Source: a bacterium (GTDB taxonomy: Bacteria; Patescibacteriota; Gracilibacteria; UBA1369; GCA-2718715). From it: a stretch of 46,060 bases of DNA. How positions within the stretch are numbered: the first letter of the stretch is position 1; each line of letters begins with the position of its first letter. Below the pieces are notes generated by a model. The model saw nothing but the letters and a program-made list of their open reading frames with translations. It did not search any database and was not told the origin of the DNA. This document shows positions 1 to 42,285 of this stretch, one piece after another. The stretch covers positions 1-46,060 of the forward strand of contig JAUHYY010000001.1 in NCBI GenBank assembly GCA_030426295.1, given 5' to 3'. The position numbers and the translations under genes are program-made.

Positions 1-1623
1 TTAGATTTACCTGAGAGTATTAACAATGTTTATCAGGCACAGCTTGCTTTTATGGAAGGTAATGTCGCGGAAGCTTTGGTTTTGGTTGAGGGGGCAATTA
101 ATAGTGGTTCTTTGGATAGGGATTTGCAAAATATTGATTTGGGATTGAGCATAAGTGTTGAACAGCAATTTGGTTTTGATTTGCAAAAGTTACCTGAAAG
201 AGCAATTGAGTTGAGGAAACAATGTTATTTCATAGAACTGGATAATTTAGATGCTTTTGTTGAATCTGCGGGGCAAAGATACAGGGCGGGTATATTAACT
301 AATATGAGAGGATTGCGGCATGAATACGATCCTCATGCAGTTGTGGGTCAAATGTTAAATGACATTCGTGTAGGAGTTCAAAGTGGTATGTCTTGGGATG
401 ATGCTTATCAAAGAACTGTTTCTAGATTAGATTATTTTAATCAGCAGGGGGTACAGAATGCGCAAGAGGATGAAGGCTATCAGCCATATGATTTATTGGA
501 AGATTATTCGGAAATATTTAGAGAGTCTGATCCGCGAGTTAGAAGGGAGAAGGTATTAGATTTATCTAGAAGAGCTATGGATACGCATGGACTTTTTGGT
601 GTGGGATATTTTGGTTTAACAGAATCTTTGATTGACAGTGAATTTAGTGATGAGTTTGCTGCTATTTCTCAAGTTCCAGAGTTACAAACGCTTAGAGAAG
701 AAATGCTTGGACGGTTACAAGAGGAAATTGGTGGTTCTATTAGGCGAGATGTCGTTGCTGCTTTGCAACGGTCTTATGGAGAAGAGTGGGCCGCCCTAAG
801 TGTAGAGGAAAGAAATGCAATTATTTCTGAGCGCTTGGATTTAGTTTATGAGAATGTTGCAGACGATATTATGGTTGGTGAAACTATGAGATATGTAGCA
901 AATAATCCCGAAAGATTTTATGAGTTGGGTGGTTTAGTTGAAGTTGCAGATTTATATAATACTGCTGCAGTTCGGTATAATCGAATAATGGTTTTTGAGG
1001 AAATGGTTGAGCCTTTATTGGTTGCAGCAATTGAAACTGCTATTGCTATTCCTTTGGGTGTTGGAATGGGTAACGCAGTAAGAGGTGCTGCTTCTATAGC
1101 AAGAGTTGCGAGAATGGGACGATTAGGTCAGTTTGGTGCATCTGCTGCTGTTCGTTTGTCTCAAGGAGTTACCATTCAAACAGCACGTGGATTGACACGT
1201 GGTGCACTTACTAATGACTGGACTGAGCTCACAAACCTTAGAAATTGGACGTCTGGAGTAGCTGTGGAATCTGTGACTATGGGTTTATTAGGGTATACAT
1301 CTAGATTTGATTTAACGAATGGTCTTGCACTAATGAGTGTTTTAAAAACAGGTGCAGCATATGCGGGTGAAACTACTGCATTAACAATGATAGATAGGGC
1401 TGGGGATAGAATTGCAGGGCGTGAATCAGATACGTTCGCTCAAGATTTTGTTCAAAATGGTTTATTTGTATTTATGGCTAGATCGGTGAGAGGATCTTTA
1501 ACCCTAGGGAGGCGAGCACAGGTTAATAGCAATTCTAGGTTTGCAGAATTGTATAGAGGTTTGAGATCAACTTATGCTGAGGCTGGTGTAAATGTTATTA
1601 ATCCTGATAGAGGTATTATTTAG
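1..1623 (+). CDS. 3' part of a large orphan protein; reading frame is open to the left window edge
   Basis: Frame 1 has no stop from nt 1 (LDLPESINNVYQAQLAF precedes the first ATG at 52); ends TAG 1621-1623. No motif I recognise. The C-terminal third is Gly/Ala/Thr/Arg-rich (AIPLGVGMGNAVRGAASIARVARMGRLGQFGASAAVR). Confidence 0.5.
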   Translation, partial: LDLPESINNVYQAQLAFMEGNVAEALVLVEGAINSGSLDRDLQNIDLGLSISVEQQFGFDLQKLPERAIELRKQCYFIELDNLDAFVESAGQRYRAGILTNMRGLRHEYDPHAVVGQMLNDIRVGVQSGMSWDDAYQRTVSRLDYFNQQGVQNAQEDEGYQPYDLLEDYSEIFRESDPRVRREKVLDLSRRAMDTHGLFGVGYFGLTESLIDSEFSDEFAAISQVPELQTLREEMLGRLQEEIGGSIRRDVVAALQRSYGEEWAALSVEERNAIISERLDLVYENVADDIMVGETMRYVANNPERFYELGGLVEVADLYNTAAVRYNRIMVFEEMVEPLLVAAIETAIAIPLGVGMGNAVRGAASIARVARMGRLGQFGASAAVRLSQGVTIQTARGLTRGALTNDWTELTNLRNWTSGVAVESVTMGLLGYTSRFDLTNGLALMSVLKTGAAYAGETTALTMIDRAGDRIAGRESDTFAQDFVQNGLFVFMARSVRGSLTLGRRAQVNSNSRFAELYRGLRSTYAEAGVNVINPDRGII

Positions 1624-3203
1624 ATTTCTTTAATTTCCTTTGTGGTAAATGTTTTTGTACCTAATATTCCGCCTAAGTAAACTAATCCTCCGATAGGAAT
1701 CAAGATTAGAATGTTGAAGTTTTCGATTAAGTTATAAGTTGGAGCCTTTAAGTAATATACAACTACACCCATTAGGGCTCCAGAAAATAGTACTTTGATG
1801 TTTGTTAGCCACGGAATGCGTATTTCAATTAGTTTTCTGCATGCGACGTAAGTTCCAATTAGAATTATTAGCTCGGAAAGTATTGTGGTTAGGGCTGCTG
1901 CTTCAAATCCGTACTTTGGAATAAAAATTAGATTTGTTGTTACATTAAATATTACACCGATTAAGTTTACGATGAGAAGGTAGCTTTGTTTTTCCATTGC
2001 AACTAGGCTGAATGCGAATAGGGTGTTTAGAAATGCAAAAACCATTGCGACTAGAATTAGTCTTAAGGCGATGTCTGATCCTTTTCTGTATTCGAACGGA
2101 TTCGCTGTGTCGATTGTGAAGTCTTTCTTGATTTCAACGTTTGGGCAAATTGCAGAAGCTTCTTCTGGGCTTTGGTAAACGATTTGTGCGTTGTTAGCAC
2201 AGTGGTAGCCTGTTAAGAATTGTGGGCTAGCGATAGCGAAGGTTAGTGGGAAGGCAAGTAGTGCTCCACCTATTGCGATTGGAACAGCTAGAGTGAAGAG
2301 GAACTTCCAAGACTTGGTGATAAGCATTTGGAACCTTTCTTTGTTTTTGTTAAAGCTTTCTGTGATTGCAGGTAGTGCTGAGTTCATGAAGAAGACAGGT
2401 ATTACCCCGAGGATTTCCATGAATTTTAGACTTACTCCGTAGATACCTACTTGCGTGTAGTTTTGAATTAAACCAAGTAATACTACATCTATTTTGAAGT
2501 AGATTGTGCTTAGTACTAATGAGAGGCCAAGGGGTAAAGATTTGATTACTAGTTCTTTTGTGTATTTCCAATTGAAGTCGACGTAGACTTTTGTGTGTTT
2601 ACTTACAAATAGAATTATTAAGAGTAGGTTGAATATACTTGCGAGGACTCCTGCATAAAGTAAGTAGGTGAATCCTGTCTCAATATTGCCTACTGCAAGT
2701 ACATAGATAGTAAGTGCAATAAATCCAACGTTTAAAATTTTACCTATGGTGAGCGCGATAGTTGCGTATACCATTTTAAGTTTGTATTGAAGAACAGAGC
2801 TTAGGGTTCCTGTTAATAGTGAGAATCCTGTAGTAATTGCAACGAGCCATATTCCTTGAGATACATATGTATGTGCGTATTTTGGAATAAACTGGGCAAT
2901 TATTCCGGCAATTCCAAGCATTGAAATAATAAGTACAGATCGGATTGCGATTATATTAGCTAGAATTTCTGAGATGGATTTTTCTTTTTTTGACATTTCT
3001 CGAACGCCAATTGTGTAGAGTCCGAAATCTGCGGCAATTGCGAAGAATCCGATGTATTCGTAAAGAGTTGTATATTGACCATAAATATCTGCAGGTAAAT
3101 AGTTGGTAATAATTTTGATTGAAATTATTCCAAGTACTGCTGCGAGGAATCTTCCTAGCACCTGCCAAAAAGTGTTCGACAATATTTTTCGAGCAAGGCT
3201 CAT
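1620..3203 (-). CDS. MOP-superfamily oligosaccharide/polysaccharide flippase (Wzx-like polysaccharide biosynthesis protein)
   Basis: 527 aa, polytopic. N-terminus LARKILSNTFWQVLGRFLAAVLGIISIKIITNYLPADIYGQY is typical of Wzx/polysaccharide biosynthesis transporters. Its stop overlaps the convergent gene's stop (TTAG at 1620-1623). Confidence 0.75.
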   Translation of the reverse strand: MSLARKILSNTFWQVLGRFLAAVLGIISIKIITNYLPADIYGQYTTLYEYIGFFAIAADFGLYTIGVREMSKKEKSISEILANIIAIRSVLIISMLGIAGIIAQFIPKYAHTYVSQGIWLVAITTGFSLLTGTLSSVLQYKLKMVYATIALTIGKILNVGFIALTIYVLAVGNIETGFTYLLYAGVLASIFNLLLIILFVSKHTKVYVDFNWKYTKELVIKSLPLGLSLVLSTIYFKIDVVLLGLIQNYTQVGIYGVSLKFMEILGVIPVFFMNSALPAITESFNKNKERFQMLITKSWKFLFTLAVPIAIGGALLAFPLTFAIASPQFLTGYHCANNAQIVYQSPEEASAICPNVEIKKDFTIDTANPFEYRKGSDIALRLILVAMVFAFLNTLFAFSLVAMEKQSYLLIVNLIGVIFNVTTNLIFIPKYGFEAAALTTILSELIILIGTYVACRKLIEIRIPWLTNIKVLFSGALMGVVVYYLKAPTYNLIENFNILILIPIGGLVYLGGILGTKTFTTKEIKEI

Positions 3204-3237: not shown

Positions 3238-3272
3238 TTATTAATTGTTGATTGTTAATTCATTATTAAATG
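3238..3272. repeat. Period-7 tandem repeat (ttattaa ttgttga ttgttaa ttcatta ttaaATG) running into the prfB start
   Basis: Five consecutive heptads read directly from the sequence; same family as the heptad arrays at 6522, 27130, 30742, 33364 and 42257. Confidence 0.6.
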
Positions 3273-6484: not shown

Positions 6485-6517
6485 AAAAAACCGGCCTAAT
6501 TGGTAGGCCGGTTTTTT
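6485..6517 (-). terminator. Rho-independent terminator after ftsZ
   Basis: Stem ccggcct (6491-6497) pairs with aggccgg (6505-6511), loop aattggt. Flanked by an A-run and a T-run, so it could act in both directions. Confidence 0.8.
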
Positions 6518-6521
6518 GTAT

Positions 6522-6549
6522 GGCTAATTGCTAATGGCAAATAGCTTAT
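6522..6549. repeat. Period-7 tandem repeat (ggctaat tgctaat ggcaaat agcttat) spanning the ftsZ stop codon
   Basis: Four heptads read directly from the sequence; lies between the ftsZ stop (6546-6548) and its terminator. Confidence 0.6.
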
Positions 6550-7858: not shown

Positions 7859-9103
7859 TTACGGAAGTAAATTTTTAGCCCATCCCTTTAATGTGCTAGC
7901 GGCTTTAGTGAAATCGATCTTTGAGAAATCGATACCAAGTCCGATGTGCGCATCTTCAAATCTGCTTCCCCAAACTAGAAGTCCGATTGCTGATGAATAT
8001 GATGGATCATCAATTTTTTCAACAACTCCTTCGAAGTTAGTCGGGAATCCGATTTGAACAGGTAGGTTAAGTGTTTCCCGAGCAAGGTCTATCGTTCCAG
8101 GCATTTTTGCTCCGGCACCTGTTAGGATTACTCCTGCAGGCAACATTCCGTCTCTATGAATCTTTGCCAGTTCATCTCTTACAAGTAAGAAGATTTCGTG
8201 GTAACGAGCTTGAATGATTTGTGAAAGTGTCTTTCTAGATACTTGCTGCAGATCAATCTTGCTCAAAAGTGATAAGTCGATCATTTCTCTTTCTTGAACT
8301 TCCTCTGGTAGGCAAGTCCCGTATTCGATCTTGATCTTTTCTGCTGTGTCTATTGAAGTTTTTAGTCCAATTGCAACGTCGTTAGTAACATTTTCTCCGC
8401 CAACTGGGATCACTGCTGAATGTAGGATAGTTCCTTCTTCGTATACTGCCATTGATGTAGACCCTGAACCGATATCAACTACGACTACACCAAGTTCTTT
8501 TTGTCTCTTTGATAAAACAGATTCTCCAGGTGCTAGTGAGTTTGGAATAATATCGTTAATGTCTACGCCAGCTTGAAGTACTGATTTTTCAATATTCTTA
8601 ATTGCTGGAACAAGTCCTGTAACAATATGAGCTTCTACTTCCAGTCTGATACCGCTCATTCCTACTGGGTATTTGATTCATTTTTGTTCGTCTACCGTAA
8701 ATGATTTAGGAATAATTCTTAAGATTCTTCTATTTGATGGAATTGAAACTGCTTGTGCAGCTTCTAGCACTCTGTCGATGTCTTCTTCCATAATCTCGCT
8801 GTTTGGGTTTGCAATTGCGATTACCCCTTTTGAGTTTGATGACTCAACATGGTGACCATTAATACCAAGGAATACATGGTGGATTGGTTCGCCTGCCATT
8901 CGTTCAGCGTCTTCAAGTGCAGATGCTATTGAGTTGATTGTTTCTTCTACATCAATAACCATGCTTTTTCTAATTCCAGTTGATGGAGCAATACCTACAC
9001 CAATAATGTTTGGTACTCCAGTTTTTTCATCAACTAAGCCAACGATTACTCGAATTTTTGAGCTACCGATATCTAAGCTTGCTATGATTTTATTTCTCGC
9101 CAT
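7859..9103 (-). CDS. ftsA: Cell division protein FtsA, interrupted by one in-frame TGA (8678-8680)
   Basis: Track ORFs 8678..9103 (SLDIGSSKIRVIVG phosphate-1 motif) and 7859..8659 (VVVDIGSGSTSMAVY, ILTGAGAKMPG) are in the same frame. 141+1+6+266 = 414 codons, a normal FtsA length. The junction reads TVDEQK*IKYPVGMSGIRLEV. Confidence 0.85.
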
Positions 9104-9412
9104 TTTGTTAGTCGTTAGTTATTTGGAAATTAGTAGTCGCCAAAATTCTGCGCTTGTCTAAAGTGGAATCAATGTACAATTTACAGAGTGCTTTTACAAA
9201 CAGTTTTTAGCCGGTTTAGAGTAGGTAGGTATTTACGTAAACATTTTTTGTTCGACTATTCAGGTGGCTACCAAGCGGTATAGTTCTGCTCTAGTGTAAG
9301 CGATATGAGCAGTAATTTGAATTTGCAATAATTTCAAAAGCAGGTGTAGCTATATATTTCCGTGAACCAATTTTGTGTACCCTAGAGTGCAGCCGTGCAA
9401 ATTTTGTGATCG

Positions 9413-13937: not shown

Positions 13938-14540
13938 TTATTCTGATTTTTCTTCAGATTCTTCTGAAGTTTCTTTGGCTGGAGCTTCCTCAGCAGCTGG
14001 TTCTTCAGCTGGAGCTTCCTCAGCAGCTGGTTCTTCAGCTGGAGCTTCCTCAGCAGCTGGTTCTTCAGCTGGAGCTTCCTCAGCAGCTGGTTCTTCAGCT
14101 GGAGCTTCTTCAGCAGCTGGTTCTTCAGCTGGAGCTTCTTCAGCAGCTGGTTCTTCAGCAGCTGGTTCTTCAGCAGCTGGTTCTTCAGCTGGAGCTTCCT
14201 CAGCAGCTGGTTCTTCAGCTGGAGCTTCTGGAGCCTCTTCTTCTTCTGGAGCGTTTTTCTTTCTTCTTTTCTTGTCTCGGTTTCCGATATATTTGTCCAT
14301 ATCAGACATTCCTAGACCTTTAAGAAGAGAAGCAACTGTGTCAGTTGGTTGAGCTCCTTTAGATATCCATTCTTTAATTTTATCTTGATCAACTTCAAGA
14401 ACTTTAGGGTTTTGAGTTGGAAGATAGTGACCTACTAGGTCGATATATTTCTTTTTTACTGCTTGAGATTTCTCAGCAACAACAATTCTGTATGCAGGCA
14501 GGTTTTTTCTACCGATACGTTGGAGTCTTATTCTTAACAA
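13938..14540 (-). CDS. rpsP: 30S ribosomal protein S16 with a C-terminal acidic Pro/Ala/Glu repeat extension of about 110 aa; TTG start
   Basis: [24 protein letters not shown]...[13 protein letters not shown] is canonical S16. It is followed by ([10 protein letters not shown])n. Start codon TTG at 14538-14540. Confidence 0.9.
13975..14235. repeat. Tandem 30-nt coding repeat (ggagcttcctcagcagctggttcttcagct, about 8 units) inside the rpsP 3' half
   Basis: Near-perfect units are visible from 13981 to 14220, with one 15-nt half-unit variant around 14155-14185. Confidence 0.95.
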
Positions 14541-21987: not shown

Positions 21988-22049
21988 TTTATGGGTTTTC
22001 TAAGAAAAAGCTAGGAGTTTTGAATGTTCAAAATATTAAAAGCGATGGT

Positions 22050-22835
22050 TTATTTGTATGGTTTTGCTGAATCCCATGCTATTTCGAATACGACTTGCCT
22101 GATGAATACAGCGATGTCTTTGTTTTCGATTATTGTGACGGTTCTTTTACCTTCTGTGTATGAAAGAAATCCTACTTTGTTGTTCCACGAGAAAAAACCA
22201 GCGGCCCAATGATATTTTTCGGGGAGGACTTTGATTGTGATTTTGTATTCTTTTGTTTTTTTGTTTAGCCGATCACCGTATTTGCATTTCGGGAATATAA
22301 GTCTTGTTGTTATTCCTTTTTTGGCACGTCGCTTTACGTAATCTTCTAAATAGTCAGGGTGAACAGCGTCAGCGAGTTGTTGTACGTAAGAGAAGAGCAG
22401 TACTTCGCCCTGCGCTTCAAGTGTTTCTTCAAGCATTTTTTTGAGGCCTGAAACTCCTTCATAAAATTTAACTGTTGGGCGAGCGGTGTCTTGGGATTTT
22501 ATTTTTGAAAGTAATTCAGCGATGTATCCAATGTTGGTCTCCATCTGCTTGAGTTCGTTGAGTTTTGTTTGGATAATTTGTTTTAGTGCTTTAGGGTCTT
22601 CTGCCAGTATTAGTCTACGTTTACCTTTGCGGGTTTCTGTTAAGAGTCCTTTCTTTATAAGTTGTTCTGCTGCGCTATGAACTGTCACTCTATTCATATT
22701 TAAGGATTTTGATATTTCTTGAATAGAGGATGGGCCTAACTGGAGTGATTTGATATAGATTTCGATTTCTCTGTCTGAGCAGTCAAAGCGTTTTAAATGA
22801 GACTTAACTCGGAATATTTCTTGCTCGTTTAGCAT
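22050..22835 (-). CDS. TrmB-family transcriptional regulator
   Basis: N-terminal wHTH REIEIYIKSLQLGPSSIQEISKSLNMNRVTVHSAAEQLIKKGLL, then a coiled-coil and a C-terminal effector-type domain. Confidence 0.75.
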   Translation of the reverse strand: MLNEQEIFRVKSHLKRFDCSDREIEIYIKSLQLGPSSIQEISKSLNMNRVTVHSAAEQLIKKGLLTETRKGKRRLILAEDPKALKQIIQTKLNELKQMETNIGYIAELLSKIKSQDTARPTVKFYEGVSGLKKMLEETLEAQGEVLLFSYVQQLADAVHPDYLEDYVKRRAKKGITTRLIFPKCKYGDRLNKKTKEYKITIKVLPEKYHWAAGFFSWNNKVGFLSYTEGKRTVTIIENKDIAVFIRQVVFEIAWDSAKPYK

Positions 22836-22837
22836 AA

Positions 22838-22856
22838 TGTAGAATAGATTTCTACA
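22838..22856. promoter_or_regulatory. Inverted repeat TGTAGAA-tagat-TTCTACA next to the trmB-like start codon
   Basis: Perfect 7-bp arms, 3 nt upstream of the minus-strand ATG at 22833-22835. Either an operator or a 5'-UTR hairpin. Confidence 0.45.
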
Positions 22857-22940
22857 AATATTATATCACGTATAAGTGGCTTTAACAAGCCTGTGGTGGT
22901 TTAATGAGGCCTGCTATAGATATGATTTGTAATGGAGGTA

Positions 22941-22969
22941 TTGACATTTAGGCGAAGTTATCTTATAGT
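22941..22969 (+). promoter_or_regulatory. Sigma-70-type promoter (TTGACA-17-TATAGT) for the Cys-rich protein operon
   Basis: TTGACA at 22941-22946 and TATAGT at 22964-22969. It lies inside the track ORF's N-terminal extension, which argues for the ATG 22992 start. Confidence 0.6.
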
Positions 22970-22991
22970 TAGATATTATTTAATAAAACCA

Positions 22992-23981
22992 ATGAATAAT
23001 TTTATAGAAAAATTTCAGACCTTATTGATTGATAAGCCTCGGTATAATGTGAAACACGTTAATGCTGAGAACTGTGATTATGCAGATACTGCGGTTAATA
23101 GTAAAAATTGCTATTATTCGTTTTGCGCTTTTTACTGTGAAGATGTTTATTATGCTCGTTACTCAAGAAAATGTAGCAATTGTAGTGGAATAACTTTTTG
23201 TGTTGGTTGTGAGTGGTGTGTTGAATGTATTGATTGTAGTAATTGTTATAAGTGTGATTACTCGCAATATTGTCAGAATTGTTCAGAATGTCAGTTTTGT
23301 CTTGATTGCTTTGGATGTAAGAATTGTTTTGGGTGTGTGGGCTTGTATCAAAAACAGTACTGCATGTTTAACGAGCAACTTACAAAAGAAGAATTTGAGA
23401 ATCGTTTGAAACAATTAGATTTATCTAATCCAGTGCATAAGGAGGCAGTTTATACACGGCTAGAAAGTTTGAAGGGGAAGGTTCCGGTTCTTGGGGTACA
23501 TAAATTTCAGACGGAGGATTGTGTGGGTGATAGCTTGACTGAGTGTAAAGGTTCTTATCAATGTTATGACGCTTTTGTACTTGAGTATTGTAATTACAAT
23601 ATTGAATGTAATGGGAATACGAATAGTACAGATTTGACGGTTTGTTTTGAGGTCGAGTGGTGTTACTCGTGTGTTCAGGCTCCGATTAATCATAATTGTA
23701 ATTTCTTGATGCATACTGACCAGTGTAGCGATAGTGAGTTTTGCGCTTATTCTAAGAATTTAAAGAATTGTTTTGGATGTGTTTATTTGGCGAATAAGGA
23801 GTACCACATTTTGAATGAGCCATATTCTCCGGAGGAATATGAGAAGAAAGTTGCTGAGATTAAGCAGGAATTAATGAGTCAGCGATTACATAATATGAGT
23901 TTGTATCTGGTTTCAGATTATGAACAGAAGCGTTTTCAAAGTGAGGACGATAGTGTTATTCAATCTATTTTAAAAATTTAA
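22992..23981 (+). CDS. Cysteine-rich repeat protein with internal duplication and many CxxC units
   Basis: CVGCEWCVECIDCSNCYKCDYSQYCQNCSECQFCLDCFGCKNCFGCVGLYQKQYCMFNEQLTKEEFE. The second half ends with the parallel LKNCFGCVYLANKEYHILNEPYSPEEYE. No signal peptide or TM segment. Confidence 0.7.
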   Translation: MNNFIEKFQTLLIDKPRYNVKHVNAENCDYADTAVNSKNCYYSFCAFYCEDVYYARYSRKCSNCSGITFCVGCEWCVECIDCSNCYKCDYSQYCQNCSECQFCLDCFGCKNCFGCVGLYQKQYCMFNEQLTKEEFENRLKQLDLSNPVHKEAVYTRLESLKGKVPVLGVHKFQTEDCVGDSLTECKGSYQCYDAFVLEYCNYNIECNGNTNSTDLTVCFEVEWCYSCVQAPINHNCNFLMHTDQCSDSEFCAYSKNLKNCFGCVYLANKEYHILNEPYSPEEYEKKVAEIKQELMSQRLHNMSLYLVSDYEQKRFQSEDDSVIQSILKI

Positions 23982-23990
23982 TTTTATATC

Positions 23991-24260
23991 ATGAATACTC
24001 AAACAGTTTTAAAATGTATGGATTGTTCGAAAGACTTTTTAGTTATCGATCAAGAAGCAAAGTTTTATGCAGATAAGGGACTGCCAAATCCTGATCAGTG
24101 TCCGGCTTGTCGGCATAAAATTCGTATGGCTCTTAGAAATGAAAGGGCTCTGTATAAGCGAACTTGTGATTGCTGTAATGAATCGATGTTGGCGACTTAT
24201 CCAGAGGATGCTCCTTATAAAGTTTATTGTCAGAAGTGTTTCTGGGAGAATGTTGGATAG
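23991..24260 (+). CDS. Small double zinc-ribbon protein
   Basis: Four Cys pairs: CMDC, CPAC, CDCC and CQKC. DQEAKFYADKGLPNPDQCPACRHKIRMALRNERALYKR resembles the 'probable zinc-ribbon' family (from memory). Confidence 0.65.
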   Translation: MNTQTVLKCMDCSKDFLVIDQEAKFYADKGLPNPDQCPACRHKIRMALRNERALYKRTCDCCNESMLATYPEDAPYKVYCQKCFWENVG

Positions 24261-24305
24261 TGATTTTGACAAGTGTTATACTTCGATCACTTTAAAAATG
24301 TTTTT

Positions 24306-25985
24306 ATGGAATTTTTGCTTTTATTCGCCTTTCTTGCTGGGATAGTAACGATTTTGTCTCCGTGTATTTTGCCTTTGCTTCCTATTATTTTGTCGAGCTC
24401 GGTTACGGGTTCTAAGAAGTATCCGTGGGGCGTGGTTACTGGATTTATTTTGAGCTTCACATTTTTTACTTTGTTTTTGACTGCGGTGGTTGATGCAACT
24501 GGGTTGTCTGCGAATTTCGTAAGAACTCTTGCGATTGTAGTTGTATTTGGATTTGGTTTGGTGTTGGTTGTTCCGAAGTTACAAGTTTTGTTTGAGATTT
24601 TTGCGTCGAAGTTGGCAACTAAAGGTCAAAAAATTCAGAGTAAGTCTGATCATGCTGGGTTTAAGAGTGGATGTTTTGTCGGTCTTTCTTTAGGACTTGT
24701 TTGGACTCCGTGTGTTGGTCCAATTTTGGCTTCAGTGATTTCTTTGGCGTTGGTTGGTGCTGCTAACTCGCAGGCCGTATTTATTACTTTGGCTTATGCA
24801 ATTGGTACGGCGATTCCCATGCTTGCGATTTTATATGGTGGTCGAACTTTGGTTCAGAAAGTACCAGCGCTAACACGGAATTTAGGTCGGATTCAGAAAG
24901 TGTTTGGAGTTTTGATGATTTTGACTGCTATTGCTTTGTTTTTTAATTTTGATCGGCAGTTTCAGTCATATATTTTGGAGAAGTTCCCAAATTACGGTGC
25001 CGGTTTAACTCAGTTTGAAGAAAATGAAAAAGTTCAAAAGCAATTGGATGTACTTCGTGGGACTGATTCGTTTTCGACTGGAGATTTAGATGAAGTTAAG
25101 CCTGCACCTGAGCTGATTCAAGGTGGTGAGTGGTTTAATAGTGATCCACTTACCTTAGAAGAGCTTGAGGGTAAGGTTGTGCTTGTAGATTTTTGGACAT
25201 ATAGCTGTATAAATTGTATTCGAACATTACCTTATTTGAGAGCTTGGCATGAGAAATATAGTGATGACGGACTAGTGATAATTGGTGTACATGCTCCCGA
25301 GTTTGAGTTTGAGAAAAATCCTAATAATTTGAGAAAAGCTATAGAAGATTTTGAGCTTGAGTATCCGATTATGCAGGATAATAATTTTGAAACTTGGAGA
25401 GCTTATGAAAATCATTGGTGGCCTTCTAAATTCCTAGTTGATCATGAAGGTCAGCTGGTTTATAACCATCACGGTGAAGGCAAGTACGAAGAGACTGAAC
25501 AGTTGATTCAGAAGTTATTGAGTGAAGCAGGTTATGAGCCAACGGATTCTGTTTTTGATGCTTCATATTCGACTACAAGAGGGAGAACGCCAGAGACTTA
25601 TTTGGGTTATAGAAGAACTAAGAGGTTTGCATCTGGTGAAATCAAAAAAGATGAGATGAGCGTGTATGGGTATCCGGAATCTTTAGAGGAAAATGAGTAT
25701 GCGTATAGTGGTGGATGGACTTTCTTTGAAAAGCACTCCTTAGCTGAAAAGGGAAGTAAGTTGAAGATAAATTTCAGTGCTCAAAATGTGTATTTGGTTA
25801 TGAGTCCAGCGTTAGATGAGCAGGTTCGAGTTGCGGTTTATGTTGATGGAGAACAAGTAAAAACTGTGACTGTAGATGCTGATGAACTTTATACTTTGGC
25901 TGAATTAGATCAAGGTGGTACTCACGAGCTTGAGCTTGAGTTTTTGGATGGAAATACTAAGGTTTACGCTTTTACGTTCGGGTGA
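24306..25985 (+). CDS. DipZ-like protein: CcdA/DsbD transmembrane electron-transfer domain, thioredoxin-like domain, C-terminal beta-sandwich domain
   Basis: LSPCILPLLP and WTPCVGPIL (CcdA Cys pair); FWTYSCINCIRTLP (redoxin CxxC); C-terminal domain ending YAFTFG. Start moved to ATG 24306. Ends in TGA. Confidence 0.8.
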   Translation: MEFLLLFAFLAGIVTILSPCILPLLPIILSSSVTGSKKYPWGVVTGFILSFTFFTLFLTAVVDATGLSANFVRTLAIVVVFGFGLVLVVPKLQVLFEIFASKLATKGQKIQSKSDHAGFKSGCFVGLSLGLVWTPCVGPILASVISLALVGAANSQAVFITLAYAIGTAIPMLAILYGGRTLVQKVPALTRNLGRIQKVFGVLMILTAIALFFNFDRQFQSYILEKFPNYGAGLTQFEENEKVQKQLDVLRGTDSFSTGDLDEVKPAPELIQGGEWFNSDPLTLEELEGKVVLVDFWTYSCINCIRTLPYLRAWHEKYSDDGLVIIGVHAPEFEFEKNPNNLRKAIEDFELEYPIMQDNNFETWRAYENHWWPSKFLVDHEGQLVYNHHGEGKYEETEQLIQKLLSEAGYEPTDSVFDASYSTTRGRTPETYLGYRRTKRFASGEIKKDEMSVYGYPESLEENEYAYSGGWTFFEKHSLAEKGSKLKINFSAQNVYLVMSPALDEQVRVAVYVDGEQVKTVTVDADELYTLAELDQGGTHELELEFLDGNTKVYAFTFG

Positions 25986-25986
25986 T

Positions 25987-26014
25987 TTGACATTTTGTGC
26001 TACTCTTATATAAT
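25987..26014 (+). promoter_or_regulatory. Consensus sigma-70 promoter (TTGACA-16-TATAAT)
   Basis: TTGACA at 25987-25992, 1 nt after the TGA stop; TATAAT at 26009-26014; ATG at 26036. Confidence 0.65.
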
Positions 26015-26035
26015 TGTTTCTTGTAACTTTTATAC

Positions 26036-26458
26036 ATGACAAGAACCGTACGTATCCCTTTAGATGCAGATCATGATTTAGCTAGGGCAATAGCTGAAGA
26101 TACTGCAGAAAATCCGCAATATGATTCTTTTTTGGATTACTTAAATAATTCTGGGACTAATTTTCTTTATGCAAATTTTGATTCTGCTAGGTATATGCAG
26201 ATACCGGACGGAGATTTGCCTATCGTAGCTGACTTAGTTAGCTACGATTGTTCACTGCGTTTGATTGATTCTGCTAGGGTTAAAGGAGGGCCTGATTTAG
26301 TTTATAGATATGTTGGTGATTATAGAGGTGAAAAATATGAGGTTATTAAAATTGGTATGCGTAATGGGGATCCGAAGGTTCCTGCCAGAATATTGTTTAG
26401 AAAAGTTGATAAGGTGCAAGGTGTTGTTGCAAGTACCAGGTCAAAACTTGTAAGGTAG
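26036..26458 (+). CDS. Hypothetical 140-aa protein (orphan)
   Basis: ORF preceded by a consensus promoter; no recognisable motif. Confidence 0.45.
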   Translation: MTRTVRIPLDADHDLARAIAEDTAENPQYDSFLDYLNNSGTNFLYANFDSARYMQIPDGDLPIVADLVSYDCSLRLIDSARVKGGPDLVYRYVGDYRGEKYEVIKIGMRNGDPKVPARILFRKVDKVQGVVASTRSKLVR

Positions 26459-26477
26459 AGAAAATTAATTTTAAAAA

Positions 26478-27143
26478 ATGAATCAAGACGAACAAAAAAA
26501 GATAGCTGGTTATAAAGCAGCAGAATTTGTTGAGAATGGAATGATTGTGGGGCTCGGTACGGGGTCTACTGCTAAGCATGCTGTTGATGCTTTGGGTGAG
26601 AGACTTACAGAAAATTTTAATATAACTGGGGTGCCAACAAGTGATAGAACTGCCGATCAAGCTAATGGTTATGGAATCCAGCTACTCGATGAACCTAATG
26701 TTGAGAATATTGATGTAACGATTGATGGTGCTGATCAGATTGATCCCAAGACTGGGCTTTGTATTAAGGGAGGCGGTGGTGCTCATTATCTTGAAAAGAA
26801 AGTTGCCAAGAAAACTGCTAAGCAGATTATTATTGCTGACGATTCAAAGCTTGTAGATAATTTTGGTGGGTATGATGTTCCTTTAGAAATTGATGAGTCG
26901 AAGCGAGCTGGAGTTCGGCTGTATTTTGAAGATGCTTCTATGCAATTTGAATATCGTGAAGAAAAAAGTGACAGTGGTAATTTGATTGGTGATGTTGTTT
27001 TCGATGGGAGTAAAACTTTAGAGGAATTTGAAGCAGAACTGATGCAAATTGATGGAGTTATTGATACTGGCGTGTTTAATGGTCTTGTTGATATGCTGAT
27101 AGTTGGAAAAGAGGATGGAAGTGTGGAGGTTATTAGTTATTAG
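26478..27143 (+). CDS. rpiA: Ribose-5-phosphate isomerase A
   Basis: VGLGTGSTAKHAVDAL, IDGADQIDP, CIKGGGGAHYLEKKVA. Confidence 0.9.
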   Translation: MNQDEQKKIAGYKAAEFVENGMIVGLGTGSTAKHAVDALGERLTENFNITGVPTSDRTADQANGYGIQLLDEPNVENIDVTIDGADQIDPKTGLCIKGGGGAHYLEKKVAKKTAKQIIIADDSKLVDNFGGYDVPLEIDESKRAGVRLYFEDASMQFEYREEKSDSGNLIGDVVFDGSKTLEEFEAELMQIDGVIDTGVFNGLVDMLIVGKEDGSVEVISY

Positions 27144-27171
27144 TTATTGGTCATTGGTCATTGGTTATGTA
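27130..27171. repeat. Period-7 tandem repeat (ttattag ttattag ttattgg tcattgg tcattgg ttatgta) spanning the rpiA stop
   Basis: Six heptads read directly from the sequence; the rpiA TAG (27141-27143) lies inside unit 2. Confidence 0.7.
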
Positions 27172-27197
27172 TTATAATTACGTATTATAATATTTCG

Positions 27198-28619
27198 ATG
27201 ATGATCAAAGCGGAGAAGAATTTTACAATGATAATATTTGGGGCTTCAGGTTCACTGGCCAAGTTGAAGATTTTCCCATCTTTATATGAACTTATTTCTG
27301 AAGGGCGTATGCCTGAAGAATTTAAAATTGTTGGTTACTCAAGAACTGAAAAAACTGATGAGGAGTTTAGAGCTGAGTTTGCTGAATCTGTTAAGCATGA
27401 AGTTGAGAATGTAGATGATAAAGTTTTAGATGAATTGGTTTCGAATGTTTTTTATCATACTGGTCAATACGATAATCATGACGATTATGTGGGGCTTTGC
27501 GAAAGATTAAAAGAAATTGAAGAGACTGAAGATAGGGTTCGCGTTGGGTATTTTTCTGTTCCGCCTTCTGTTTTTGATGACATTATTAAAGGTGTTGGTG
27601 AAACTTTGAACAAAGAAGATGTCGAGTTGAGGCTTATTTTTGAAAAACCATTTGGCGAAAATTATGTGACGTCAAAAGAGTTGAAACGAAAGATCTTTGA
27701 TCAGTTTGAGAGAAACCAGGTGTTCTTGCTTGATCATTATTTAGGTAAAGAGGCTGTGTTTAATTTGCTTTCGCTTAGGTATGCGAATTCGATTTTTAGT
27801 TATTTGATTCAAGGTAAGAATATTGCGAACATTCAGATTACAGCAATGGAGTCCGTTGATATTGAAGGGCGTGCTGGTTATTTTGATAATGTGGGGATTT
27901 TGAAAGATATGGTGCAGTCGCATTTGTTCCAGATTCTTGCGTTTTTGACTATGTATATTCCGAGATCTTTTGAGTCAAAGTTGGTGCATCAGTCGAAAGT
28001 GCATTTGCTTGAGAATATGTATTTTGAAGGTTCTCCTGAAGATATTGTTAGAGGTCAGTATGAAGGGTATAGAGGTCATGATGGAGTTAGTGAAGATTCG
28101 AATACTGAAACTTTTGTTGCTCTTAAGATGGGTATTGATTCTACGAACTGGCATGGGGTTCCGATTTATTTGAGAACAGGTAAAAGCTTGAAGCAAAAGT
28201 GGACTTCGGTTGTGATTGAGTTTGCTCCACATCAGTATCAGAAAAAGCTTGGGGAAGGGCGTACTAATAAGTTGGTGATGATCCTTCAGCCTGATGAGTC
28301 TGTGAGTTTTCATCTTTTGACTAAGCAAGGTGGTCGTGAACTCCAGTTTGATGAAGAGGTAACAAGTAAGCCAATTTATTGTAAGGGGGATTGTACTAGT
28401 GAGCATACCCGATTGCTGCTTGAGTGTATTGCTGGTGATCACATGTTGTTTTTAGACTTCCCTGAGATTTATGAGGCGTGGAAAATAATTGATCCGATTG
28501 GTGAGATGTTTGAGAATGATAAGGTTCCGCTAGATATGTATGAAGTTGGTGGAGTTGGTCCAAAATCTGCTGATGAGCTTATCGAGAGAGATGGATTTAA
28601 GTGGCATAATTTCTTCTAG
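27198..28619 (+). CDS. zwf: Glucose-6-phosphate 1-dehydrogenase
   Basis: IFGASGSLAKLKIFPSLY (NADP site), EKPFG, DHYLGKE, RGQYEGY. Start moved to ATG 27198. Confidence 0.9.
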   Translation: MMIKAEKNFTMIIFGASGSLAKLKIFPSLYELISEGRMPEEFKIVGYSRTEKTDEEFRAEFAESVKHEVENVDDKVLDELVSNVFYHTGQYDNHDDYVGLCERLKEIEETEDRVRVGYFSVPPSVFDDIIKGVGETLNKEDVELRLIFEKPFGENYVTSKELKRKIFDQFERNQVFLLDHYLGKEAVFNLLSLRYANSIFSYLIQGKNIANIQITAMESVDIEGRAGYFDNVGILKDMVQSHLFQILAFLTMYIPRSFESKLVHQSKVHLLENMYFEGSPEDIVRGQYEGYRGHDGVSEDSNTETFVALKMGIDSTNWHGVPIYLRTGKSLKQKWTSVVIEFAPHQYQKKLGEGRTNKLVMILQPDESVSFHLLTKQGGRELQFDEEVTSKPIYCKGDCTSEHTRLLLECIAGDHMLFLDFPEIYEAWKIIDPIGEMFENDKVPLDMYEVGGVGPKSADELIERDGFKWHNFF

Positions 28620-30741: not shown

Positions 30742-30790
30742 GGATGGTTAATGGCTGATGTTTAATAGCGAATAGTGAATGGCTGATTTT
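30742..30790. repeat. Period-7 tandem repeat (ggatggt taatggc tgatgtt taatagc gaatagt gaatggc tgatttt)
   Basis: Seven heptads starting right after the LOG gene stop (30738-30740). Confidence 0.6.
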
Positions 30791-30877: not shown

Positions 30878-33367
30878 GTGAAATTAGTAATAGTCGAATC
30901 CCCTGCGAAAGCGAAAACGATAAATAAATATCTTGGAAAAGATTATGTCGTTGAGTCGAGTATTGGGCATATTAGAGATCTTCCACAAAGTGCAGCTGAT
31001 ATTCCTGATAAGGTTAAAGATCAGAAATGGACTCGGCTTGGAGTAAATGTTGAAGAAGGTTTTGAACCGCTTTATGTTGTTCCGACTGATAAGAAGAAAC
31101 AGATTAAAAAATTGAAAGATTTGCTTAAAAAGGCTGATGAACTTTATCTCGCAACGGATGAGGATAGAGAAGGAGAAGCGATTAGTTGGCATTTATTAGA
31201 AGTGCTTAAGCCAAAGGTTCCTGTTAAGAGATTGGCTTTTCATGAAATTACAAAAGACGCAATTGTGAAGGCTATAGATAATCCAAGGGAAGTTGATATG
31301 GATCTTGTGAATGCTCAAGAAACTAGAAGAGTTTTAGATAGACTTTATGGTTATGAGGTGTCACCTATCTTATGGAGAAAGATTGCGCCGAAGCTTTCGG
31401 CTGGTCGTGTGCAAAGTGTTGCATTAAGAATTATTGTTGAGAGAGAAAGAGCGAGAATGCGATTTGTTGCTGCTGAATATTGTAGTGTTGTTGCTACTTT
31501 TGTAACTGATGAGGGGGAAGAGTTTGAGGCGACTTTGAAGATGGTAGGTGATCAAAAGTTGGCGATTGGTAAGGATTTTGATCCTGATACTGGTGAGATT
31601 ACAAATAAAGAAGTGCTGCGACTTTTGAAGAAGGATTGTGAAGATTTGATTAAGAAATTTGAGAAGTCTGACTGGACTATTGAGTCTGTTGAAAAGAAAC
31701 CAGTTAAGTCTTCGCCTTATGCTCCGTTTATTACGAGTACTTTGCAGCAAGAAGCCAATAGAAAACTTGGTATGTCTTCTCGAGATACAATGAGTGCTGC
31801 GCAAAAGCTTTATGAAAATGGTTACATTACATATATGAGAACGGATTCGATTTCGTTGTCTACTCAAGCGATTGAAGCTGCGCGATCTATTATTAAGAAA
31901 GAGTATGGGGAAGAGTATCTTCCAAAGGAGGCGAGAGTGTTCAAGTCAAAAGTAAAGAATGCGCAAGAAGCGCATGAAGCCATTAGACCTGCGGGGAATA
32001 GTTTCCAGACTCCTGATGAAGTTGCTGGGAATGTTACTCCTGAGCAAGCTAAGCTATATGATTTGATCTATAAGAGAACGATTGCTTCTCAGATGGAGGA
32101 TGCGCGAATGCAAATGACAGTAATTAAGATTGTAGATGGAAACGCAATGTTCCAGGCTAATGGGCGAGTGATTGAGTTCCCTGGATATTTGAAAGCTTAT
32201 AAAGAGGATCTTGATAAACAGACTTCTGGTGAAGATAATATTTTGCCTGATGTAAGTGAAGGAGATAAAGTTGATATGAAAGATGGTCAAATTGGTGAGC
32301 ACATGACTAAGCCACCTGCTCGTTATACTGAAGCATCGCTTGTTAAAGAGCTTGAAGCTCGTGGTGTAGGTAGACCGAGTACGTATGCATCTATTATTGA
32401 TACTATTCAGAGAAGAAAATATGTTTATAAAAAAGGTAAGGCCCTTGTTCCGACTTTTGTGGCTTTTGCCGTGATTAGTTTGATGGAAAAACATTTCAGC
32501 CACTTAGTTGATATGGAATTTACGGCTGAGCTTGAAGAAGATCTTGATGCGATTTCACGTGGTGAAGAAGATCGGCTTAAGTATTTGAAGTGTTTCTATT
32601 TTGGAGACAAAAAGCATACTGGGTTGGTTGATTTAATTAAGGCTGATATTGATGCACGAGAAGTTTGTACTATTCCTGTTCCAAGAATAAAGATGGATGT
32701 ACGAGTTGGAAGATATGGTCCATTTGTTGAGAAGGGAGAAGAGACTGCGTCTTTACCTGCTGATGTTGCACCAGATGAGCTTACAGAAGAAATGGTTGTC
32801 GAGCTCTTGAAGAGTTCAGCTAAAAAAGATGAGCCGCTTGGAGTTGATTCTGAGAGTGGTAAGCCGGTGTTTGTTAAGGTAGGTAGGTTTGGTCCTTATG
32901 TTCAGCTTGGTGAAGCTGGTGGTGAAGAAAAACCAAAGATGAAAGGGCTTCCACCTGGAGTTCAGGTTGAAGATGTTGATTTTGAGAAAGCTGTAGCAAT
33001 TGTTTCATTCCCTAAAGTGATTGGTAAGTTCAATGATGAAGATATTGTTGCTGATATTGGGCGGTATGGTCCTTATGTTAAGGCTGGTTCTGAAACTCGA
33101 AGTCTTGGTGAATTAGATATTTTGAAGCTTACTGAAGATGATGCAGTTAAACTTCTTAAAGAAGAGAAAAAAGGACGAGGTCGAAGAGCTGCAAAACCAC
33201 CTTTGAAAACTTTCAAAGAAGATGAAACTATCACAGTTAAGACAGGTCGGTATGGTCCTTATGTTAATCAAGGTAAGGTAAATGTGTCTGTGCCAAAAGA
33301 CATCAAACCTGAGGATCTTACTTATGAAGATGCTAAAAAGATGATTGAGGAGAAGAAGGGGAGTTAA
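30878..33367 (+). CDS. topA: DNA topoisomerase I with a Zn-free repeat-type C-terminal domain; GTG start
   Basis: VKLVIVESPAKAKTINKYLG (Toprim), YITYMRTDS (active-site Tyr). Four C-terminal G(R)YGP(Y/F)V repeats without Cys4 zinc ribbons. Confidence 0.95.
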   Translation: MKLVIVESPAKAKTINKYLGKDYVVESSIGHIRDLPQSAADIPDKVKDQKWTRLGVNVEEGFEPLYVVPTDKKKQIKKLKDLLKKADELYLATDEDREGEAISWHLLEVLKPKVPVKRLAFHEITKDAIVKAIDNPREVDMDLVNAQETRRVLDRLYGYEVSPILWRKIAPKLSAGRVQSVALRIIVERERARMRFVAAEYCSVVATFVTDEGEEFEATLKMVGDQKLAIGKDFDPDTGEITNKEVLRLLKKDCEDLIKKFEKSDWTIESVEKKPVKSSPYAPFITSTLQQEANRKLGMSSRDTMSAAQKLYENGYITYMRTDSISLSTQAIEAARSIIKKEYGEEYLPKEARVFKSKVKNAQEAHEAIRPAGNSFQTPDEVAGNVTPEQAKLYDLIYKRTIASQMEDARMQMTVIKIVDGNAMFQANGRVIEFPGYLKAYKEDLDKQTSGEDNILPDVSEGDKVDMKDGQIGEHMTKPPARYTEASLVKELEARGVGRPSTYASIIDTIQRRKYVYKKGKALVPTFVAFAVISLMEKHFSHLVDMEFTAELEEDLDAISRGEEDRLKYLKCFYFGDKKHTGLVDLIKADIDAREVCTIPVPRIKMDVRVGRYGPFVEKGEETASLPADVAPDELTEEMVVELLKSSAKKDEPLGVDSESGKPVFVKVGRFGPYVQLGEAGGEEKPKMKGLPPGVQVEDVDFEKAVAIVSFPKVIGKFNDEDIVADIGRYGPYVKAGSETRSLGELDILKLTEDDAVKLLKEEKKGRGRRAAKPPLKTFKEDETITVKTGRYGPYVNQGKVNVSVPKDIKPEDLTYEDAKKMIEEKKGS

Positions 33368-33398
33368 TAGATAATGGATAATAGCTGATAGCTGGTGA
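33364..33398. repeat. Period-7 tandem repeat (ttaatag ataatgg ataatag ctgatag ctggtga) spanning the topA stop and the next gene's start
   Basis: Five heptads; topA TAA at 33365-33367; next ORF's GTG at 33395. Confidence 0.65.
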
Positions 33399-41468: not shown

Positions 41469-41512
41469 GTTTCGAAAATGTATACTCTTAGTCCTTATAA
41501 ATTTATTTGAAT

Positions 41513-42274
41513 ATGATTAAAACTCTAGAAATTACAAATCTTCATGCGAGTGTTGATGGTGAACCTATTTTGAAAGGTGTGAATCTAAAAGTTAGTGCTG
41601 GTGAAATCCATTGTATTATGGGGCCGAATGGTTCTGGTAAATCGACTTTGGTTAATACTATTATGGGTCACCCGGCTTACGAAGTAACTGAAGGAGAAAT
41701 CCTTTTAAATGGGGAGAATGTATTAGAAATGGAACCATTTGAAAGAGCTCAGGCTGGGATCTTCTTAGCTTTTCAGTATCCGAAAGAGATTGCTGGAGTT
41801 TCAATGCTAAACTTTTTGACTGCAGCTTATAATGCGCATTTGCTTGCTAAAGATCCTGAGGCTAAGCCAATGAAAGCGTTTAGATTCAAGAGAGAGATTA
41901 AAGCTCAAATGGAAGAACTAAAGATTGATCCTGCGTTTTTAGATCGATTTTTGAATCAAGGTTTTTCTGGAGGTGAGAAGAAAAAAGCTGAAATCCTACA
42001 ATTAAAGTTACTTCAGCCAACGTTTGCTTTGCTTGATGAGACTGATTCTGGTCTTGATGTTGATGCCTTAAAGATTGTTGCTGAAGGTATAAATTCTATG
42101 AAAGGTGATGATTTCGGAGTTTTATTGGTAACTCATTACCAAAGAATTTTAGATTACGTTGAACCGCATTTTGTACATGTGATGATTGATGGGAAAATTG
42201 TAAAAAGTGCGAGTGGTGATTATGCAAAAGAACTAGAATCTACAGGGTACGAACAGTTAATAGTTAATGGCTAA
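41513..42274 (+). CDS. sufC: Fe-S cluster assembly ATPase SufC
   Basis: Walker A GPNGSGKST, signature FSGGEKKK, Walker B ALLDETDSGLD. Start taken at ATG 41513 rather than TTG 41507. Confidence 0.95.
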   Translation: MIKTLEITNLHASVDGEPILKGVNLKVSAGEIHCIMGPNGSGKSTLVNTIMGHPAYEVTEGEILLNGENVLEMEPFERAQAGIFLAFQYPKEIAGVSMLNFLTAAYNAHLLAKDPEAKPMKAFRFKREIKAQMEELKIDPAFLDRFLNQGFSGGEKKKAEILQLKLLQPTFALLDETDSGLDVDALKIVAEGINSMKGDDFGVLLVTHYQRILDYVEPHFVHVMIDGKIVKSASGDYAKELESTGYEQLIVNG

Positions 42275-42284
42275 TAGCTAATAT
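42257..42284. repeat. Period-7 tandem repeat (ttaatag ttaatgg ctaatag ctaatat) spanning the sufC stop and ending 1 nt before the sufB ATG
   Basis: Four heptads; sufC TAA at 42272-42274; sufB ATG at 42286. Confidence 0.65.
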
Positions 42285-42285
42285 T

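Follow-up and report, generated by a model that had tools for sequence, protein, structure and literature searches.

Heptanucleotide arrays between the genes of a candidate-phyla-radiation bacterium are probably lineage-specific, slippage-prone simple-sequence repeats

Short arrays of head-to-tail 7-nucleotide (nt) units sit at the gene boundaries of a 46,060-nt stretch of bacterial DNA (GenBank contig JAUHYY010000001.1; hereafter the window), which is contig C6 of a genome bin of 0.89 Mb (89 contigs, 37% G+C, 69% complete). The closest relatives of its FtsZ protein (at most 74% identity) are metagenome-assembled genomes labelled Candidatus Peregrinibacteria, Peribacteria or Gracilibacteria, all of the candidate phyla radiation (CPR). 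We propose that the arrays are heptanucleotide long simple-sequence repeats (LSSRs), probably a microsatellite-like, lineage-specific case of a slippage-prone kind that is already known. A sequence-only reading of the window, which first noticed the arrays, knew of no described element of this form; such elements have in fact been published, as heptameric LSSRs, the cyanobacterial short tandemly repeated repetitive (STRR) sequences, GGGAATC repeats of Xanthomonas and TAACTGA repeats of Beggiatoaceae (PMC4679880, PMC4692102). Full-text literature searches turned up no article describing such repeats in Peregrinibacteria.

The period-7 signal is specific and intergenic

We scanned the intergenic DNA of the bin, extended by 15 nt, for segments with at least 16 of 21 lag-p matches. 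Period 7 returned 45 intergenic arrays compared with 1.15 in shuffles (maximum 4), which bears out the genome-wide enrichment that the sequence-only reading had proposed as a check. The same scan gave 14 arrays at p = 14, seven at p = 6 and one to three at each remaining period from 4 to 15. With the threshold raised to 18 of 21 matches, period 7 still yielded 14 intergenic arrays and one coding array, and all other periods that are not multiples of 3 yielded zero, except 14. Genome-wide, Tandem Repeats Finder (TRF) rows with a score of at least 40 numbered 17 for period 7 and 18 for period 14, next to 1, 3, 4 and 7 for periods 8, 10, 11 and 13. The period-7 signal is specific, strong and almost all intergenic, and the period-14 signal is its harmonic.

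The units form a family. Exact fits to NT[AG][AT]T[AGT]G occur in 26 of 38 intergenic arrays and in 10% of random intergenic heptamers, and this measured unit lies close to the consensus first drawn by eye, [T/C]T[A/G]AT[A/G]G. Typical members are CTAATAG, CTAATGG, ATAATAG, TTATTAG, TTATTGG and TTAATTG. Comparing arrays with one another in any rotation and on either strand, we found 32% of pairs within one mismatch, versus 4.7% when random intergenic heptamers were compared and 9% when units were permuted at fixed composition. We relied on exact fit and pairwise distance because a looser family fit (at least 80%) was passed by 64% of random heptamers; the family pattern was controlled by shuffles, the reversed pattern not being independent since TAAT is palindromic in reading.

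A comparison of array flanks revealed no conserved flanking sequence, and an inverted partner was present within 200 nt of only 1 of 46 arrays. No Rfam family matches at the arrays. Their predicted RNA folds are weaker than those of control spacers (-0.067 vs -0.094 kcal per nt), and we rejected a hairpin or terminator role on the ground that the arrays are less structured than those controls.

Arrays in the window

The window carries the six loci originally noticed and one further family member. The family scan required at least 17 of 18 constrained positions to fit.

27124–27176, plus strand: main heptamer array, at rpiA; TTATTAG twice, TTATTGG, TCATTGG twice, TTATGTA (lag-7 scan; TRF 27128–27168, period 7, 5.9 copies, 88% matches, score 54)
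42251–42285, plus strand: sufC-sufB array; TTAATAG, TTAATGG, CTAATAG, CTAATAT (lag-7 scan; TRF 42258–42283, 3.7 copies)
33362–33397, plus strand: topA array; TTAATAG, ATAATGG, ATAATAG, CTGATAG, CTGGTGA (lag-7 scan; TRF 33365–33384, 2.9 copies)
30743–30787, plus strand: LOG-topA array, degenerate, period 7/14 (TRF period 14, 67% matches, score 48; family scan 30748–30768)
6522–6549, plus strand: ftsZ-side array, weak, 3–4 units; CTAATTG, CTAATGG, CAAATAG (family scan only, 6524–6544; too weak to be reported by TRF)
3238–3272, plus strand: release-factor array, three units; TTAATTG, TTGATTG, TTAATTC (family scan; TRF 3241–3260, 2.9 copies)
9105–9125, plus strand: family member unlisted by the sequence-only reading; TTGTTAG, TCGTTAG, TTATTTG (family scan)

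All six original loci are real by TRF and family scan, three being solid on their own and the other three convincing only as family members. Pfam confirmed the gene names given at first sight (RpiA, G6PD, SufC, SufB, TopA, a LOG-type protein, FtsZ and a class-I release factor), and the arrays overlap or abut the stops or starts of flanking genes as had been described.

At two loci the array reaches into the coding sequence. The rpiA stop (27141–27143) lies inside its array, whose first units encode the RpiA C-terminus (gene 26478–27143; VISY*), and the sufC-sufB array supplies the last five codons of sufC (gene 41507–42274; LIVNG*), its stop (42272–42274) and the whole 11-nt spacer to the sufB ATG (42286). 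Arrays therefore moved or created these stops and added short C-terminal tails. The topA array extends from the topA stop (33365–33367) to the start of the next open reading frame (ORF; 33395) and contains an exact match to three TAATRGN units. The LOG-topA array begins 2 nt past the stop of the LOG-family gene, within the 137-nt LOG-topA spacer. The ftsZ-side array has its G-type strand antisense to ftsZ, and sits between the ftsZ stop (6546–6548, minus strand) and an intrinsic terminator at 6517–6485. The release-factor array occupies the divergent spacer between a minus-strand ORF (1620–3203) and the release-factor gene (ATG 3270; Pfam PCRF, RF-1). The additional array at 9105 abuts the start of a minus-strand ORF (8678–9103) and is antisense to it.

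Downstream of the rpiA array come two GTATTATAAT -10-like boxes and then the G6PD gene. These boxes come from a 13-nt direct repeat, TTACGTATTATAA (2.1 copies, 27165–27191), which adjoins the array and places them roughly 20–45 nt upstream of the likely G6PD start, either ATG 27199 or ATG 27229 rather than TTG 27147 within the array. The sequence TATTATAAT was found 25 times genome-wide, several times just downstream of heptamer arrays, and is probably an extended -10 promoter element. Around the same locus, JGI contig L177, from the same population, is 99.8–100% identical to window positions 22000–28000, yet rearranged, with an inverted block and a 91-nt inverted segment near rpiA; this reflects either structural variation or mis-assembly. 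Elsewhere in the window, a 30-nt tandem repeat (13971–14228, 8.6 copies, 94% matches) lies within a minus-strand ORF.

Units duplicate locally and change in number

Within arrays, adjacent units differ by 1.66 mismatches on average and non-adjacent units by 2.40; shuffles of unit order never reached the observed value in 2000 trials (permutation p < 0.0005). Blocks of like units form ladders, for example three ATAATAG and one TTAATAG followed by TTAATGG and CTGATGG on contig C49, or TTATTAG twice, TTATTGG and TCATTGG twice in the rpiA array. Such ladders are expected from local duplication of units.

One change in copy number involves an array between thyA and folA:

C38:151–230, outside the window: perfect thyA-folA array, (CCAATAA)x10, the only long perfect tract

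The JGI assembly L179 carries 11 units here (2958–3040) where the bin carries 10, and the other 4.3 kb are identical but for one substitution. Logan contig L180 begins inside this array (L180:1–31). The last unit ends in the folA start codon, reading CCAATG in L179 and L180 and CCAATT in the bin; with CCAATT, the start of dihydrofolate reductase (DHFR) would be ATT or a truncating downstream ATG.

Degenerate arrays show no change between assemblies of 100% overall identity, which holds at rpiA (L177 and L178), sufC/sufB (L181 and L182) and metK. The nearest genomes reach at most 44% RpiA identity, so that conservation at orthologous junctions could be compared strictly through a single relative, the 96%-identical L184, and at one junction, LOG-topA. 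There L184 retains an array at the same place, with two units (14 nt) fewer and many substitutions; the distal part of the spacer (~70 nt) is unchanged, and the array is far more diverged than its flanks. Adjacent-unit similarity, the difference between 10- and 11-unit assemblies and the 14-nt difference in the 96% relative all lend support to one of the roles first suggested for the arrays, that of slippage-prone spacer DNA.

Arrays are patchy among relatives

Exact arrays of three TAATRGN units, of which this genome has 12, are present in 2 of 60 relatives. A broader pattern, five T[AG]G-N4 units in tandem, matches in 39 of 205 genomes of the order, and the matches are concentrated in family f4 (up to 197), then f18, G022, G157, G168 and G174. 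Nine other genomes of the same family as our bin have 0–1 such matches each. Sampling for period 7 gave one match in 400 kb of the complete same-family genome G003 and three and two matches in the samples of G004 and G010. Elsewhere in the order, scattered families reach tens to ~200, and each uses a unit of its own. Across the order the trait is patchy and lineage-specific, and its units differ by lineage.

The most informative relative is G061 (the same genome as G030), from another family of the order. It contains 75 period-7 arrays in 134 kb, with 0–1 at periods 4, 5, 10, 11 and 13 and seven at period 8. These arrays fall into at least six unrelated unit families (TAGTTCG, CGAATGT, AGAAATC, TGCAACT, GATACTT and TAGTACC), several of which hold no stop codon on either strand. 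The property conserved across lineages is the period and not the stop content. Long heptamer arrays of G061 coincide with N-gaps and contig ends (C16, C18, C19; L169:5090–5190, L174:2350–2450); arrays therefore break short-read assemblies. Enrichment of arrays at contig ends was not significant in our bin (6 of 47 vs 8% expected).

Loss of mismatch repair was considered as a cause of this distribution and rejected: MutS is encoded by 175 of the 205 genomes, almost every repeat-rich one among them, and the MutS-less family f15 is mostly repeat-free.

Patchiness, together with alike units at ~40 loci, could instead point to a dispersed mobile or horizontally spread element, such as a module resembling a miniature inverted-repeat transposable element (MITE) or transposon footprints, that carries a heptamer block; MacGregor proposed horizontal spread for TAACTGA repeats (PMC4679880). 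We regard this as highly improbable and rejected a MITE or mobile origin. Flanks are unrelated, with neither terminal inverted repeats nor target duplications around the arrays, and inverted partners are as rare as reported above. Units grade into each other and are most similar when adjacent, which indicates local duplication, and exact TAATRGN arrays are nearly confined to this genome.

Orientation follows GC skew, not transcription

Local GC skew exceeds 0.12 in absolute value at 24 arrays, and in 21 of them the G-containing unit strand coincides with the G-rich DNA strand (21:3). Relative to adjacent genes, orientation is mixed: 22 sense and 15 antisense arrays at stops, 15 sense and nine antisense at starts. 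The window has a strongly positive GC skew (maximum +0.39), and its arrays are all G-type on the plus strand, even beside minus-strand genes (6524, 9105). Array orientation tracks GC skew, not transcription. Spacer type matters little, occupancy by arrays being 4.0% for co-directional, 5.4% for convergent and 5.7% for divergent spacers (p = 0.6). The pattern of duplication, the change in copy number, the skew-linked orientation and the equal occupancy of spacer types together point to a process acting on the DNA itself, not to an RNA function tied to one strand.

These observations bear on the idea, raised in the sequence-only reading, that the arrays are binding sites. HutP and TRAP of Bacillus bind RNA at NAG triplets of fixed spacing, and HutP sites are UAG-N4, a 7-nt spacing. 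By analogy, T[A/G]G-N4 repeats could be recognised by an oligomeric protein that binds RNA or single strands, working like HutP, TRAP or cold-shock proteins, or by one that binds DNA; such a protein would control translation or transcription at gene junctions without Shine-Dalgarno (SD) sites. T[AG]G does recur every 7 nt, the spacing of HutP sites, in arrays that are unstructured as RNA. Furthermore, the unit family exceeds what composition predicts, within-array variation is concentrated at positions 1, 3 and 6 (a pattern biased by the choice of register), and TAG-containing units recur in other lineages (TAGTTCN, TAGTTTW, TAGGATK, TAGTCGG). Many arrays also abut starts that lack SD sites, as proposed for TAACTGA repeats (PMC4679880).

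Even so, we consider a binding array rather unlikely. The T[A/G]G repeats occur in both orientations relative to transcription and follow GC skew instead, and they lie outside leaders, in all spacer types, with convergent spacers populated as often as divergent ones. They occupy tens of loci, in contrast to the one operon of HutP or TRAP. Unit number is variable, units are lineage-specific, G061 has its many unrelated period-7 units, and an NAG within a 7-mer is expected by chance on one or other strand. Profiles for HutP (PF09021) and TRAP (PF02081) had no match at E ≤ 1, and the cold-shock-domain profile had none, in this 69%-complete bin.

Frame closure and translation signals

The sequence-only reading had pointed out that a stop-bearing 7-mer in tandem closes every reading frame, and the arithmetic holds: among 26 stop-adjacent arrays, 22 close all three frames when read in the sense direction, where 56% would be expected for a random intergenic heptamer in tandem. 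Closure of every frame on one strand or both is seen in 89% of arrays, compared with 32% of length-matched intergenic controls. These figures favour the possibility that arrays were selected because three or more stop-bearing heptamers end translation in every frame between genes.

The same 56%, however, is the share of random intergenic heptamers that hold a stop per strand, and three repeats of any such 7-mer close all frames automatically. Divergent promoter regions, where no ribosomes arrive, carry arrays as often per spacer, and the antisense arrays at stops (15 of 37) include some that have no sense-strand stop, such as C41:11520. Stops are already abundant in AT-rich spacers, and the G061 families CGAATGT and TGCAACT have no stop on either strand. 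We conclude that a stop or insulator function is very unlikely to be the reason for the arrays, and that frame closure is a by-product, since the period-7 families of relatives include stop-free units.

The insulator had been imagined in a genome without SD sequences and terminators. SD absence was confirmed, with GGAGG essentially missing upstream of 665 ATG starts genome-wide; the absence of terminators was not, as intrinsic terminators, GC-rich hairpins followed by a T-run, stand after ftsZ (6485–6517, minus strand) and downstream of arrays on contigs C85 and C88.

ATG starts genome-wide are instead preceded by a positional motif, T(-13)T(-12)A(-11)A(-10)[C/T](-9)..T(-7). It is stronger where the upstream gap is at least 40 nt and thus does not represent the stop codon of the neighbouring gene; candidate identities are a -10-like box of leaderless transcripts and an initiation signal of non-SD type. 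In this lineage without SD sites, the arrays might also be maintained as tandemised stop-start words (UAAUAG, UAAUGG, TAACC) that give each short spacer an unstructured AU-rich pad for landing or re-initiation, together with a start-proximal TTAAY-type word. The TAA word at -13 to -11 is supplied by 4 of 20 arrays versus 45% of all genes, although start calls at arrays are unreliable because TAATGG contains ATG. We give maintained pads only a small chance; if they exist, gain or loss of units would tune the coupling of neighbouring cistrons such as thyA and folA.

Comparison with known heptamer repeats

In most prokaryotic genomes, no long simple repeats are more abundant than those with heptanucleotide units, according to the accounts of Mrazek, Guo and Shah (2007) in PMC4679880 and PMC4692102. 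The arrays share the marks of that class. Their units stand head to tail beyond chance, period 7 is over-represented among periods that are not multiples of 3, and they are non-coding and sporadic between lineages. Whole units were gained or lost between close strains at thyA-folA and LOG-topA, as judged from assemblies, not reads. Slippage has been proposed as the cause in both. Two differences remain: the arrays are short (3–11 units), AT-rich and mostly degenerate, and their host is a small (~1 Mb) CPR genome, unlike the large Burkholderia, Xanthomonas and Nostoc genomes originally highlighted.

Another similar repeat is the TAACTGA direct repeat of marine Beggiatoaceae, some Cyanobacteria and Bacteroidetes, which lies upstream of starts without a ribosome-binding site (MacGregor 2015, PMC4679880). 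Both are AT-rich, stop-containing heptamers (2–6 copies for TAACTGA) that fill spacers lacking a canonical ribosome-binding site, may run into the 3' end of the upstream ORF for no more than about two units and have no predicted RNA structure. The Beggiatoaceae repeats are overwhelmingly forward and just upstream of starts, whereas our arrays follow GC skew, populate convergent spacers equally and are mixed in orientation near starts, as given above. TAACTGA itself occurs in this genome as 205 singletons and no tandems.

STRR heptamers are known from Calothrix and Nostoc, GGGGAYT from Nostoc and GGGAATC from Xanthomonas, the last varying between close strains at the same junctions (PMC4692102). 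Like our arrays, these are a few related heptamers dispersed over many intergenic sites, including sites inside operons, and at shared junctions they differ extensively in length and sequence from one close relative to another. The published units are rich in G and capable of forming G-quadruplexes, which our AT-rich arrays cannot form. No tandem STRR units (CCCCART, TT[G/T]GTCA, CAACAGT) or GGG units were found in this genome, save a chance TTGGTCA twice inside the rpiA array, and STRR hosts are heterocystous cyanobacteria whereas the host here belongs to the Peregrinibacteria.

In phase-variation loci, surface or variable genes typically carry long perfect tracts, placed in their promoters, 5' regions or ORFs. 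The 7-bp repeats upstream of the Haemophilus influenzae hmw genes are contingency loci of this kind (see also PMC4679880). Our arrays do not fit this class; they are mostly degenerate and flank housekeeping genes, thyA-folA being the sole long perfect tract.

Explanation and implications

We suggest that the arrays arise and change as DNA, with replication slippage or unequal exchange adding and removing whole 7-nt units. The unit was most plausibly seeded from the commonest gene-end words (TAA and TAG stops, a preferred TAA-T context and TAATG stop-start junctions), which would yield NTAWTDG, and its strand would be set by the local excess of G over C. A stop-rich unit whose length is not a multiple of 3 should be tolerated only in short spacers and the last few codons, with selection removing arrays from coding DNA. 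A simple ORF call places 879 ORFs on 94% of this genome, with a median spacer of 53 nt; the arrays seem to sit on gene boundaries because a genome this densely coding tolerates them only there. All-frame closure would follow from the arithmetic of a repeated stop-containing 7-mer. The arrays probably have no dedicated function, serving at most passively as unstructured AU-rich spacers.

Several points weigh against this explanation. The difference between 10 and 11 thyA-folA units comes from short-read assemblies and is possibly an assembly effect, and instability appears in just one perfect array and one diverged pair. Units at separate loci are more alike than composition predicts (the 32% vs 9% above), so independent slippage alone is insufficient and the seeding assumption is needed. 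Stop-containing units are somewhat over-represented beside stops. Lastly, slippage comes with no mechanism that explains the sharp preference for 7 over 6 or 8. The only published idea, credited to Mrazek (2007) in the passages of PMC4679880 and PMC4692102 that relay it, is that ~7 nt is the stretch that interacts with the polymerase and favours slippage.

For annotation, the consequences are practical. Arrays contain ATG as well as stops, add C-terminal tails (RpiA, SufC) and can mislead start calls (G6PD, DHFR).

Families of heptamer repeats have been noted since 1990 and are the commonest long simple repeats in bacteria. What keeps the present arrays of interest is their 7-nt preference, their shared unit and their sharp phylogenetic patchiness. 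With ~1-Mb genomes and close families that are either repeat-free or saturated, Peregrinibacteria offer favourable ground for a comparative search for the determinant.

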